Positions 28,657 to 42,739 of a DNA stretch of 42,810 bases are shown piece after piece. The translations under genes were made by a program, and so were the position numbers. Origin of the DNA: a virus. Where the stretch lies: the IMG/VR virus record IMGVR_UViG_3300048929_000691; one strand, written 5' to 3'. Under the pieces are notes generated by a model, which was not told where the DNA came from, did no database searches, and was given only the letters and a program-made list of their open reading frames with translations. The first letter of the stretch is position 1; the number at the start of each line of letters is the position of its first letter.

Positions 28657-28770
28657 GTAACATAAAATGTAACAATATAACGTTACTCACATTGGCACTA
28701 ATATAGTTACATTAATAGTAACAAAAGAAGTCACAAAATATGTACTAAACTTTATTACATATTTTGTGAC
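28657..28770. repeat. 12-bp-period GTNAC array 1
   Basis: Pentamers at 28657, 28669, 28682, 28694, 28706, 28718, 28730, 28742, 28754 and 28766. Confidence 0.85.
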
Positions 28771-28871
28771 TTCTTTACTGAATACTCTGGTGATCTGATA
28801 TTATTTTGTAGGGAAATTACCTCTTTGCTCCTGAGACAACTTAGTTAACATCCCTCATTTTATATGTTTTA

Positions 28872-31800
28872 TTAAACCATTGCTCCATCTCCACCTAGCC
28901 AGTATCCATCTATATAAGAATTTCTTATCATAATTCCCGTTTGATCTAAATAATACCATTTACCATTATCATTTAGCCAGCCAACCTTTGGCATTCCATT
29001 ACTATTCATGTAATACCAATTATTATTTACTTTTACCCACCCACCTACTGGATGACCTGATGGGTTTGTAAACGCCCTAATAACTGAAGGGGAAAAACTA
29101 CTTGAAGTTGTTGAGTTATATATTTTCCCGCTTGGTGAATAATTAGTTGTCGTTGTTGGTCTCAATACTACAACATTGTTATTATTATCATTATTAGCGC
29201 TATTATTGCTTGAATCTGAATTATCATCGTCATTTGAGGTATTTCTATCGATTTTTCCTGCTGTATCATTTACAGTATAATTAGTACCATTTATTGTTGC
29301 CGTAACAATTACTTTAATATATTTATTTCTATCGCTGCTTTTTAATCTATATTCTTTTTCATCAGCACCACTTATATCTGTATAATCTCCATCTCTTGTA
29401 TCAGCTCTTTGCCATTTATAATCCAAACTTGGCTCTGTTCCTGTATATCTTACGTTAGCTTTCAATCTATGGCTTACTTCCTCTGTTCCACTTATGGAAA
29501 CTGATTCCAAAATTGAATCAGAGCCAGTGCTAGATGCAGTTTGTCCTGTTACAGTGATAAGTTTATTTACTGTAATTCCACTTCCATCAGCAGCAGTAGC
29601 TATAATATCAGAAGTTCCATTAGCTACAGCTGTAACAACGCCTTGAGCATTAACAGTTGCTACGCTTGGATTACTTGATGTCCATGTTACATTTTTATTT
29701 GTAGCATTACTTGGAGTTATATTTAGCGTAAGTATTAAAGTTCCGCCTTTTGTACCGATGCTGCTATTTCCGCCAATAGTTATCCCAGCTACTTTAACAT
29801 TTGTTAGATTAGTGATTCCACTATTTCCTCCAGTGTTACTCGTACCTCCTGTATTTCCACTGCCTGTACTACTTTGCCCATTTACAGTTACAGCACACGT
29901 TGCATTTATTCCACTTCCATCATTGGCTGTACATGTTATTGTGGCACTTCCTGCTCCTACCGCATTTATATTTCCATTTTGATCTACTGTTACCACATTG
30001 TTATTACTACTGGTCCATGTTACTGTTTGATCAGTTGCACCACTTGGTGTTACTATTTCTGTTAATGTTTTTTTATCTCCTATTACACAATCTAAATTAT
30101 TTAAACTTAACGATATGTTTGTTACTTGTACTTTTTGAGGTTGATTAGCTACTACAATCTTACTTCCATTAACACCACTATCTATTAAACGCTGTTTTTG
30201 TTCTCCACTATTTACATAAAATATTGCATCATTACAACCATCAAATGCATTTTCTCCTATATATGTCACACTGTTTGGGATAACTACACTTTTTAGCAAC
30301 GTACAATTATCAAATGCAAATTTATCGATACTCTTCGTACCTTCAGGTATAGTTATATTGTCTAAACTATTACATTCAGCAAATGCTCCATTTCCAATAC
30401 TCTTTAAATTTTTAGGCAAATTTATACTAGTTAATTTATCACATCCGACAAATGTGCTAGGCTCTATACTTGTTAAATTGCTTGGTAAAGTTATACTTTT
30501 CAAGTTGTCGCACATCAAAAATGCTCCTCCACCAATACTCGTCACACTTTCAGGTATTGTTATACCTTCTAGGTCATAACAATTGCAAAATGCCTTAATT
30601 CCTATACTTGTTACACCATCAGGAATTTCTGTACTCTTCATAGTTGAACATTCAGCAAATGCATTATCACCTATACTTTTTACCTTAATTCCATTAATTT
30701 CACTAGGTATATTCATATCATCTCGTAAAATATTATAACCTACTATCTTTTGATTAGTTGCATCAAATTTAAAGTCCAATTCATTTAATGTTCTACCATC
30801 AACTTGTATCTTAGTATCATGTTCAGAAAGACCTGAATTAATTAAAAGTTGTCTAACTGCATTATTGGGAACATAATATGTAGCATTATCACATTTAAAA
30901 AATGTACTAAATTCTATAGATTTCATACTTTTAGGAATTATTATACTTGTCAGGCTTGTACAACAGTAAAAAGTACCTTTTGATAGTGCTACAACACCAT
31001 CCGGTATTTTTATGCTTGTTAAGCTATTACAATTGTAAAATGCCTTAGACTCTATATTATTTACACTGTCAGGTATATCTATATTAGTCAAATTCTTGCA
31101 TCCATCAAATGCACGAGGTCCTATGTCTGTTATACCATCGTCTAATTTTACACTTTTTAAATCCTGACAAAATGCAAAAGCATCACAGCCAACACTTTTC
31201 ACCTTCACACCATCAATTTCACTTGGTATTTCTACATCCACCTTGTTTCCATTATATTTGGTTATTGTCCCTGTATCTTTATCAAATTCATAATCCTAAT
31301 TACCTACGATGTAAATTTGACTTTCTAATATTCCATTAGAACTATTAAGTAGAAGATTTTTTGTTGCAGCACTCTTCACATAAATTATACGATACTCGCT
31401 TTTATGCAATATATTACTTCCTACACTTACTATGCTATCTGGAATATTTAGCATTCTTAAATCAATACATTCACTAAAAGCATCATCTCCTATGGTTTTT
31501 ACACCCTCTGAAATAGTTACACCTCTTAAACCACAATTCGTAAACGCCTGAGCACCTATACTTGATACTGTACCTGGTATATTTATCTCTGAAAGTTGTG
31601 TGCAGTTAGCAAATGCTGCTTTCCCTATTTGTGTTACTCCACTAGATATAGTCGCCTTAAGTAATCCAATACATTGAAAAAATGCTCCTTCACCAATGCT
31701 ACTAACACTACCAGGTATAGTTATATTTCTTAATCCACTATTCATAAAAGCAACCCAACCTATAGACTTTACTCCATTAGGTATAGTTATATTTTGCAAT

Positions 31801-32306
31801 TTATCACAATCTTCAAATGCAGCATCTTTTATAGCTGTTAAAGTATCAGGTAGATTTACCTCTTTTAAGTTACTACATCCAGCAAATGAATTATTTTCTA
31901 TTGTTGCTACACCTTCTGGAATTGTTATACTTGTTAAATTAGTGCAATTTTCAAAGGTGCCAAGTCCTATACTTATCACACTATTTGGAATTTTTATACT
32001 AGTTAAACTAGTACAATTTTTAAATGCGCTATTTCCTATACTTGTTACTGAAACGCCATTGATTGTACTTGGTATTATTACATCAGAATCACTACCAACA
32101 TATTTTATTATCGTTCCTGTAGCAGTATCAAATTGAAACTCTGAATTCTTAATAACTGCATTAACCGACTTATTATTCCATACTTCTACTGTATTGTTTC
32201 CTCCAGTTTGATTATCTGCTGCAAATACCTGTGTAGTTGCCTCCATACTTATGCACATACTTAACACCAATATTTTACTAATAAGTTCTTTATTTCTCTT
32301 TAACAT
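28872..32306 (-). pseudogene. BspA-type LRR surface protein (LRR_5, Ig/Big_2, choline-binding repeats) split by one in-frame TAG at 31296-31298
   Basis: ORFs 31296-32327 and 28872-31241 are in frame: ...IVGN*DYEFDKDTGTITKY... continues the repeat unit. Signal peptide at the N-terminus, CW repeats at the C-terminus. Confidence 0.8.
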
Positions 32307-32498
32307 GTTGTCTACCCCTTTTGTCAAAATATACTATTTATATATTTTATCATGTCTGTATTAATAAGTCCAATTATGTAAACATATTCTATTTTCTAAT
32401 GTATTCCAATTGTTCCATGTATTTAATTTGATAACTAATATTTCATAGTGATTATTTTTAACAACTCCTTCCACATAAGATATTTCATTATTCAATCT

Positions 32499-32860
32499 AA
32501 ATATTTCTTCTGCACATGTGGCAAAATGCAAACTTTTAAAGCTTGCAAATGTTTCATGATCTGGAGCGGTCGCCTCCTCAAGTAAAAACATAAATTTAAT
32601 ATCTCTAAGACATGCTTTTTCAATGTCCCGAAATGAATATAGTTTATTAATATAACCCTAAATCATAATCTTCAGCATTTTTCTTGGCGATACTTGATTT
32701 TCTCTTACTCGAAAATAAGTCGAATATAAATCTTTTAAATCCATCTCCTCTACAAATTGACTTAGTAATCGCACTGAATCATTAGCTGGTATAATATAAT
32801 AAATATTTAATGGAAGCTTTAATTGATAAAACTTCTGATTAATTGTATAATCTTTTTTTC
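32499..32860 (-). pseudogene. IS1182-family transposase N-terminal relic
   Basis: YQLKLPLN..IIPANDSVRLLSQFVEEMDL...SPRKMLKIMI*GY...SFRDIEKAC.RDIKFMFLL....PDH; internal TAG at 32658-32660 and truncated. Confidence 0.85.
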
Positions 32861-32998
32861 CACAAAAACCTGCTAAGAAAAATCAACACTTTTTTAGTAG
32901 GTTTTTAAAAATAAATATTTATATTTATTTTTAGGAGCATCGCAAACAAGCCAACCAGATATCCTGCTTAGCTCAGAAAACTTCTAAATTCCTAAGAA

Positions 32999-41784: not shown

Positions 41785-41879
41785 TTAATTCCCCCTTCTA
41801 ATATAGCCTAACTATTGCCATTTTTTCAATACCTTTTTAAGTCGAAAACGACTTAAAGCTGTTAATAATTTTTCTAATT

Positions 41880-42314
41880 TTAACAGCATAAATGCTTAGG
41901 ATCAATTAAGTTTACTTCTGCATTGTATTTAGAAAACACAAGTTCTCTATTATAGATATCCTGCTTATTAGCAATATGTAAAGAATAACTTCCAGTTTGT
42001 ATCTTCTCTACTGCTATGTCCTGCAAGACTATTCCACCAAACAATAACACTTCCTCAAGAAATTTAATTTTGTCATTATCAGTAAGGAACTCAAAAATAT
42101 CTCCCATATTTTCCACATGAAATTTAAATAAAATATCTTTTCTTTTCAGGCTATACACAACATAAAAGTTACATTTCTCAATTTTATTAGATTTTTTATA
42201 ATATCTTTTGCTGCATTTAAAAATATAAAAATCTCCAACAGAAGCTTTAAATTCTAAATACAATAAAATATTACATGCTCGCTCTTTATTACTAATATTA
42301 ACCATTTCCTTCAT
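41880..42314 (-). CDS. Hypothetical protein
   Basis: GGGGGA RBS, 144 aa. Confidence 0.6.
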   Translation of the reverse strand: MKEMVNISNKERACNILLYLEFKASVGDFYIFKCSKRYYKKSNKIEKCNFYVVYSLKRKDILFKFHVENMGDIFEFLTDNDKIKFLEEVLLFGGIVLQDIAVEKIQTGSYSLHIANKQDIYNRELVFSKYNAEVNLIDPKHLCC

Positions 42315-42443
42315 GGTAATTCCCCCATAGTCAAAAGTAGTACAATACTATGTTACCACATTTTGGTCGTAATCGAAATAGACTCTTAACATTTTTTTGT
42401 AAAATTACTAAAAAGTTTTCTTTAGGGCTTATTTTTCTAGTTT

Positions 42444-42499
42444 CAAATAAAAAATTTATATATATAGTATAAATACTATATATATAAATTTTTTATTTG
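42444..42499. repeat. 56-bp palindrome (perfect 27-bp arms)
   Basis: CAAATAAAAAATTTATATATATAGTAT-AA-ATACTATATATATAAATTTTTTATTTG. Confidence 0.9.
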
Positions 42500-42626
42500 C
42501 CATATATTTTACACTTTTATTTCTTATATATGATTTTTAATAAATACTTTTGCTTTTTTATAATAGCTAATTATACTTTAAGACCTTACTTAGTATATTT
42601 TTAAGTGACAGCTTAAGTAATATTTT

Positions 42627-42739
42627 GTATTATTATTAGTTACTATTAATGTAACTCTTTATGTTATTAATAGAGTAAGTAAATAAATTACTTTTTGCGT
42701 TACTAAAAGTGTTATTTTTGTTGTTACATTATGAGTTAC
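42627..42739. repeat. 12-bp-period GTNAC array 3
   Basis: Pentamers at 42627, 42639, 42651, 42663, 42675, 42687, 42699, 42711, 42723 and 42735. Confidence 0.85.

Follow-up and report, generated by a model that had tools for sequence, protein, structure and literature searches.

What reads the short phased repeats that lie between the genes of the viral DNA catalogued as IMG/VR record IMGVR_UViG_3300048929_000691? We examined one strand of this record, a stretch of 42,810 nucleotides (nt) that is referred to here, in its whole length, as the window; three intergenic arrays of a GTWAC core (W being A or T) within it had been proposed, from the letters alone, to be distributed centromere or protein-polymerisation sites of the TubZRC kind. 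The window is ~94% identical to Csp_135p (NC_020292.1), a circular megaplasmid of 136,188 base pairs (bp) from Clostridium saccharoperbutylacetonicum N1-4(HMT), in which phage-like genes are present (tail, lysozyme, DnaE, sigma factor), and window position 42810 corresponds to Csp_135p position 132862. We judge, with a probability of roughly 0.7, that the arrays are cooperative binding sites for the partner protein of a putative type Ib (small ParA) partition system, acting both as centromere and as operator. The part of the original prediction that saw in them cooperative sites of centromere type is retained by this judgement, whereas its analogy to TubZRC is given up.

Phased GTWAC arrays in the window

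The window was scanned for the GTWAC core plus a 7-nt AT-rich spacer, giving a 12-bp period, and reading and scanning alike placed the three arrays, none of which has a strand, where they had been predicted. Array 1 (28657-28770) has exact cores at 28657, 28669, 28682, 28706 and 28718, with a single 13-bp step between 28669 and 28682, and continues in phase after the exact cores with GTCAC at 28730 and GTGAC at 28766; its degenerate units are inside a dyad (28724-28776) that is self-complementary at 50/53 positions. Array 2 (35506-35582), the weakest, has exact cores at 35530, 35542 and 35578 together with degenerate units, including one-mismatch units at 35518 and 35554, and is accompanied by a dyad at 35507-35569 (self-complementary at 54/63). 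Array 3 (42627-42739) is free of dyads and keeps an exact 12-bp period over ten units, with exact cores at 42639, 42651, 42699, 42723 and 42735 and one-mismatch units at 42663, 42675, 42687 and 42711. Both long dyads were as previously described, as was the 18-mer of 28705-28722 with its exact inverted copy at 42639-42656; the unit counts of 10, 7 and 10 hold if degenerate units are included, the exact cores numbering 5, 3 and 5.

A comb of eight units at period 12, slid over the window, scored 12, 9 and 8 at the three arrays and found no other such place in the 42.8 kb. The maximum across 200 dinucleotide-preserving shuffles was 5, in agreement with the view that the arrays are not random, and combs at periods 8-11 and 13-16 scored at most 7; the distances from one GTWAC to another peaked at 12, 24 and 36. 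Phase and motif of the arrays are far above chance expectation.

The core is conserved and the spacer is not. Among pooled units the G at position 1 was found in 169/187, the T at position 2 in 165/187, the A at position 4 in 160/187 and the C at position 5 in 150/187, position 3 being A or T; the seven spacer positions were merely AT-rich, and units placed in orientation had no flank preference. When array 3 was compared with a relative of 82-84% identity, core positions 1, 2, 4 and 5 had changed at 2/40, the spacers at 26/70 and the adjacent flank at 37/246 (Fisher p 2e-4). The central 24 bp of array 2 (window 35524-35547) are inverted with respect to Csp_135p (L011:5602-5625), and both GTWAC cores are retained through the inversion. 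To judge from these alignments, selection appears to act only on the pentamer and its spacing, leaving orientation free, and a free core orientation fits a two-fold symmetric reader. The central inversion of array 2 is itself a flip of the type expected from template switching in a long inverted repeat.

The starts of the arrays are 6849 and 7121 bp apart in the window, and those of the homologous arrays in Csp_135p are 5230 and 7047 bp apart. Because a 1.6-kb insertion sequence (IS) lies between arrays 1 and 2 and has no counterpart in Csp_135p, the regular spacing of ~7 kb is not a conserved feature and is partly the product of the insertion. The element is of the IS110 family (32855-34468, minus strand) and is a recent insertion, sharing 99% identity with a copy on the chromosome of the nearest genome.

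The parA operon of related plasmids and its partner protein

The homologues of arrays 1-3 in Csp_135p are at 120366-120490 (11 units), 125596-125660 and 132643-132791, and with the arrays of other plasmids described below they bear out the expectation that the phase is conserved in related elements. Csp_135p has two further arrays of 11 units each (3603-3727 and 5773-5897) and two at its parA gene, one upstream of parA (135963-136062) and one inside the gene that follows (907-1007). In total at least seven arrays occupy ~22 kb across the origin of the record, surrounding parA; the whole-plasmid scan found no array in the remaining ~114 kb, mainly phage-like genes. The parA gene (101-871, 256 amino acids (aa)) is followed by a 125-aa partner gene (847-1224) whose reading frame overlaps it, and the operon is 3.4 kb past the position matching the window end. 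The encoded ParA has KGGVGKS near its N-terminus and matches AAA_31 (E 4.9e-49) and CbiA (E 1.4e-18); it is a small deviant-Walker-A ParA without an N-terminal DNA-binding domain, as in type Ib systems, and the sole such gene, and sole partition ATPase found, on the 136-kb plasmid. The placing of a partner gene directly downstream of parA, and of a repeat array beside the operon, also agrees with type Ib. The parA promoter region of Csp_135p has been cloned as a reporter (PMC13293322). To go by its relatives, the window's own replicon would carry the parA/partner operon just past the window end, and the description of the arrays as being away from any par operon does not hold for the relative, which has the operon with arrays of its own.

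The arrays belong to the element and not to the host chromosome, as had been anticipated. For the pair GTWAC-N7-GTWAC (N7 being the seven-nt spacer), the plasmid (136 kb) gave 11 occurrences and the chromosome (6.56 Mb) 18 (below the reversed-pattern control), and the three-unit form at 12 bp is on the plasmid only, with none on the chromosome; the arrays are therefore not sites of a host regulator. They are instead found with parA. GTWAC/12-bp arrays are directly upstream of parA in Csp_135p, in L014, L016, L020 and L025-L027, in a plasmid of C. beijerinckii and in pCt3, and are often also within the partner gene; the gene contexts of L016, L020 and the C. beijerinckii and pCt3 plasmids are otherwise unrelated. 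The array-bearing replicons include two metagenomic plasmids whose partner proteins have 58% and 48% identity, the 73-kb plasmid of C. beijerinckii DSM 791, and the 163-kb metabolic plasmid pCt3 of C. taeniosporum. Closer megaplasmid relatives have up to 27 units per array and at least seven arrays in 20 kb.

We surveyed 130 Clostridium species genomes with a four-unit pattern (at most 2 mismatches) and with a control pattern. The nine genomes with a close partner homologue (E <= 7.5e-27) had 9-64 four-unit matches, the AT-spacer arrays being on the contig of the homologue wherever places were listed; the seven with a distant match only (~1e-10) had 0-2. Among the remaining genomes one had 20 matches, three had 6, and the others at most 4; the control pattern gave at most 3. 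Examination of two of the three genomes with 6 matches traced their hits to coding repeats whose spacers contain GC. In the genome with 20 matches there is a 118-aa frame (L032:1489-1845, minus strand) that is the deletion remnant of a par operon, the first ~90 residues of ParA being joined to the last ~20 residues of the partner at a common I-E-F motif; several contigs of this genome still have GTWAC arrays.

The 125-aa partner protein was assigned to no family by Pfam, NCBIfam or PDB-chain sequence search, and its only match in PHROGs was to a full-length unnamed family. Its homologues form 27 clusters (50% identity, E <= 0.001) among 1.84 billion representatives, and all those examined in context directly follow a ParA of 250-256 aa. 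Alignments give a layout of a conserved basic N-terminal peptide (M-x-x-K-K-E..KP..A-K/R-P-L), a variable linker of ~25 to ~175 residues, and a conserved C-terminal domain (~55 residues) in which a short strand holds an invariant Arg and two helices are joined by a G-x-K-K turn. Much of the linker is made up of four-residue repeats such as V-T-x-x and D-T-x-x, whose copy number ranges from a few to several dozen according to the homologue; at the DNA level they are the in-gene GTWAC/GATAC array of 12-bp period. Such four-residue repeats were seen in the Csp_135p protein (L005:847-1224) and in P0020, P0021, P0026 and P0050; P0023 is without them. Valine codons before Thr were GTA or GTT in 34/37 cases, no different from the background of 155/167, and because codon usage equals background, an origin of the V-T-x-x repeat at the protein level is inseparable from one at the DNA level.

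Prediction of the full-length monomer was weak (predicted local distance difference test score (pLDDT) 54, with residues 17-49 below 50); for the C-terminal domain a deeper alignment gave an AlphaFold2 model (pLDDT 89.6) with a beta-hairpin, an extended segment and two helices. In all-against-all structural alignment of the domain model, the top 50 matches were nearly all ribbon-helix-helix (RHH) proteins (best Z 6.1, root-mean-square deviation (rmsd) 1.8 Å over 51 residues); the structures matched included TacA, CopA, MazE, PutA, NikR, Arc, AmrZ, omega (2bnw and 1irq at Z 4.2-4.3), ParG (1p94 at Z 3.9) and the ParB of pCXC100. The ESM Atlas gave leads only, to RHH_3 and RHH_1 (0.89-0.90). A homodimer of residues 50-125 was predicted with a score of 0.61 against 0.00 for the best control; the mark used was reached by 20/30 proteins solved as one-chain pairs and by 1/23 solved as single chains, and the pass may reflect RHH likeness, since RHH dimers are common among solved structures. 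The homodimer runs agreed in at least 98% of contacts, with a partner pLDDT of at least 78, and the interface was continuous over residues 70-87 with a cross-chain contact 76:82, which fits the antiparallel ribbon of RHH dimers. The 125-aa protein is thus predicted to be an RHH dimer with a disordered tail, and the predicted fold and the flexible N-terminal tail with its conserved basic peptide would again agree with a type Ib partner.

Surroundings of the arrays and alternative readings

Array 1 is 127 bp upstream of the start of a minus-strand 303-aa gene which heads a GroES-like/DnaE row; array 2 is 186 bp upstream of a minus-strand cell-wall-binding-repeat gene (34538-35320, Pfam Choline_bind); and array 3 is 313 bp upstream of a minus-strand 144-aa gene (41880-42314) and, in relatives, also ~340 bp upstream of a plus-strand cell-wall-binding-repeat gene past the window end. 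In relatives the distance from array to start codon is often 114-144 bp. Besides the GroES-like/DnaE row, the genes near the arrays encode cell-wall-binding surface proteins (Choline_bind, LRR_5, Big_2), and those directly flanking them encode surface proteins, DUF1256 and proteins of unknown family. The array 1 dyad (28724-28776) forms on the minus strand a hairpin with a 21-bp stem followed by UUUUGUU (-28.8 kcal/mol, z -8.1), and is probably the intrinsic terminator of the leucine-rich-repeat (LRR) surface-protein gene at 28872-31241. The array 2 dyad (35507-35569), which spans most of the array, likewise forms on the minus strand a hairpin followed by a U-run (-25.7 kcal/mol, z -5.9), and is probably the terminator of the DUF1256 gene at 35678-36157. 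The best sigma-70-like promoter match (28605-28633, minus strand; TTATCA, 17 nt, TG-TATAAT; a match to consensus only) begins 23 bp past the final array 1 core and is directed towards the 303-aa gene. Consensus scans for promoters and terminators gave no excess over shuffles in this AT-rich DNA, and the promoter positions therefore stay consensus candidates. An Rfam scan of the whole window, and DNA and protein searches of a phage database, gave no match.

Other features of the region were seen in passing. Between the DUF1256 gene and a VWA-domain gene is a repeat of ~305 bp (36178-36482), of which the nearest genome has over 40 chromosomal copies at 84-94% identity; it looks like a dispersed hairpin-type element. 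The LRR/Big_2/choline-binding gene at 28872-32327 is in two frames in the window (789 and 343 aa) versus a single 1181-aa frame in Csp_135p, which may mean a split or frameshifted gene. Upstream of the 144-aa gene, a palindrome of ~45 bp (42450-42495), AT-only and almost perfect, is kept in relatives at 82-84% identity whereas the adjoining array spacers diverge, and may be a separate operator or terminator. The palindrome GTCGAWWTCGAC, a motif distinct from GTWAC, is present at window positions 4192, 22569 and 27892 and four times in Csp_135p; none of the copies found is inside a GTWAC array.

Since the arrays are in promoter-bearing intergenic regions, often at the distance from start codons given above, they might be operators of another regulator encoded by the element, concerned with transcription only and having no centromere role. 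Genes for DUF1659, DUF2922 and Phd-type antitoxin proteins are often beside parA and could supply such a regulator; however, the arrays of L016/L017 and L020/L021 abut parA and the called flanking genes there include none of these families, and the sole genome with arrays and no intact partner gene is the one that has the deleted parA/partner remnant. We regard this reading as unlikely. That arrays 1 and 2 are mainly intrinsic terminators whose dyads happen to hold phased pentamers, array 3 alone being a true binding array, is suggested by the strong folding of both dyads on the transcribed strand, by the U-runs that follow, and by the presence of just three exact cores in array 2. Against it, exact in-phase cores extend beyond the dyads (28657-28722 in array 1 and 35578 in array 2), both arrays score above every shuffle, and the Csp_135p homologues keep or improve their units while the array 1 dyad there is less perfect, so that we hold this to be very improbable.

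Nor do we put much weight upon the arrays as replication iterons or copy-control sites of a plasmid initiator, for which the chances seem slim indeed. Beside the par operon is a conserved gene of unknown function (486 aa) that has one array 141 bp upstream of it, and extra iteron clusters are possible on iteron plasmids; the 486-aa protein, however, is without similarity to two annotated clostridial replication proteins, its gene is absent from the examined flanks of several array-bearing parA loci, and at least seven arrays over 22 kb would be unusual for iterons. The TubZRC-like, type III centromere of the original prediction, bound by a winged-helix protein such as the product of 16790-17134, we now consider next to negligible in probability. 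The 12-bp period is equal to that of the tubC iterons of pBtoxis, and the product of 16790-17134 is a PadR-family winged-helix protein. This gene, however, is 11.5 kb from the nearest array, and the listed parts of two further plasmids with arrays have no PadR annotation; a search with Pfam Tubulin hit two genes of the chromosome and nothing on the 136-kb relative, where the only partition ATPase found is the small ParA. The tubC iterons of c-st are TTGAC and A/TGAA, not GTWAC (PMC6009700). A search for ParM (PF06406) gave no match, the control likewise giving no match in the 14 named genomes.

The partition reading has points against it as well. The terminator-like hairpins overlap much of arrays 1 and 2, and for this reason some of the degenerate units there may owe their sequence to the hairpin. 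The parA/partner operon was seen only in relatives, the window stopping 3.4 kb short of it, and because the surveyed genomes are kin, the survey illustrates the link with the partner gene and is not a formal test of it. Neither 32 members of the partner family (E <= 1) nor the full protein matched an RHH, ParG or omega family; a Z of ~6 is modest for a small domain, and Foldseek gave no hit against PDB at E <= 0.001, its low-rmsd rows being CopG, Arc and TacA. A second subfamily has other residues at several positions of the predicted DNA-reading strand (KRSAYHLR versus VRPNYNLS) and yet similar GTAAC/GATAC units, so that covariation of specificity could not be shown; in this connection, the plasmid CP026603, whose homologue is of 35% identity, has before its parA no more than a short run of GTAAC/GATAC, and the units within the gene are GTATC.

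A candidate partition circuit and its relation to known systems

If the arrays are partition sites, the 125-aa protein would be the one that binds them and, at the same time, would regulate transcription. Each two-fold symmetric RHH dimer would read one pseudo-palindromic GTWAC by means of its beta-ribbon, and dimers 12 bp apart would bind cooperatively, covering 6 to 27 units with an unbroken coat of protein; as a 12-bp step passes a full turn of B-DNA by ~51 degrees, such a coat, by this inferred geometry, would wind round the helix about once per seven units. Coated arrays could recruit ParA through the N-terminal peptide of the partner and so serve as centromere, and could occlude or modulate adjacent promoters and so serve as operator. 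The arrays adjoining parA would then be both centromere and auto-operator, and the dispersed arrays, including the three in the window, would be extra centromere sites and operators that tie the replication-gene row and the cell-wall-anchored surface-protein genes to the level of the partition protein. A bolder extension, which we offer as speculation and think rather unlikely, is a distributed centromere in which 7-11 RHH-coated arrays over 20-40 kb form one large segregation and silencing domain; one of these arrays would be encoded in the linker of the binder itself (V-T-x-x being GTWAC plus 7 nt), and slippage would change linker length and centromere size together.

What has been described is likely the maintenance and regulation circuit of a family of 136-kb phage-like megaplasmids in solvent-producing and other Clostridium, its parts being a ParA motor, an unnamed partner family of predicted RHH fold, and a DNA code of GTWAC every 12 bp. 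It would offer a testable handle on plasmid stabilisation or curing in an industrial host, and a name for an unannotated protein family.

The nearest precedent is the delta/omega system of pSM19035. There, three promoters carry arrays of 10, 7 and 9 heptads that serve omega as parS sites and as operators alike, and each plasmid has six parS (PMC2441792). Like delta/omega, the present system would join a small ParA to a small RHH dimer (predicted here) with an unstructured N-terminal tail, and delta/omega sets the precedent for cooperative binding to 7-10 short repeats in either orientation. Unlike the unspaced 7-bp heptads of omega (WATCACW), the unit here is a 5-bp core with a free AT-rich spacer of 7 bp and a 12-bp period; the partner is larger (125 aa), has a repeat-rich linker and, ahead of the RHH, an additional beta-hairpin that is a candidate for the contact from dimer to dimer, and has no sequence-family match to omega; and the arrays, spread over ~22 kb, are more numerous (at least seven) and longer (up to 27 units) than those of pSM19035. 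The arrays and partner may be a second case, with a different spacing, of the omega-type design, where centromere binding and global regulation fall to a single small protein, and the many dispersed arrays, together with a repeat inside the protein's own gene, exceed the textbook cases. In TubZRC of c-st, a small DNA-binding protein coats the iteron arrays, forming a complex that covers a promoter (PMC6009700). The present partner is predicted to be RHH whereas TubR is a winged-helix protein, the iterons differ, and no TubZ was found on the relative.

Other systems resemble the arrays in part. ParF/ParG-parH of TP228 and par2 of pB171 (ParA/ParB with parC1/parC2) are type Ib systems with a small ParA and an RHH partner whose flexible N-terminal tail stimulates the ATPase; parH of TP228 has short repeats with AT-rich spacers, and the operon of pB171 lies between arrays. 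Unlike these, where the sites are at the operon, the arrays here are also dispersed among other genes and differ in repeat length and period, and no sequence similarity was detected. In ParMRC (R1, pSK41), RHH dimers of ParR occupy the tandem iterons of parC at intervals of roughly one helical turn (10-11 bp), which yields a helical segrosome; that system works with an actin-like motor, ParM, in place of the Walker-type ParA of the present one. KorB of RK2 is at once partition protein and global regulator at about a dozen dispersed plasmid sites, but is a ParB-type helix-turn-helix protein on single 13-bp palindromes and not on arrays. The GTWAC arrays and their partner are most likely a clostridial variant of a known centromere-plus-operator design, and not a system of the tubulin type.

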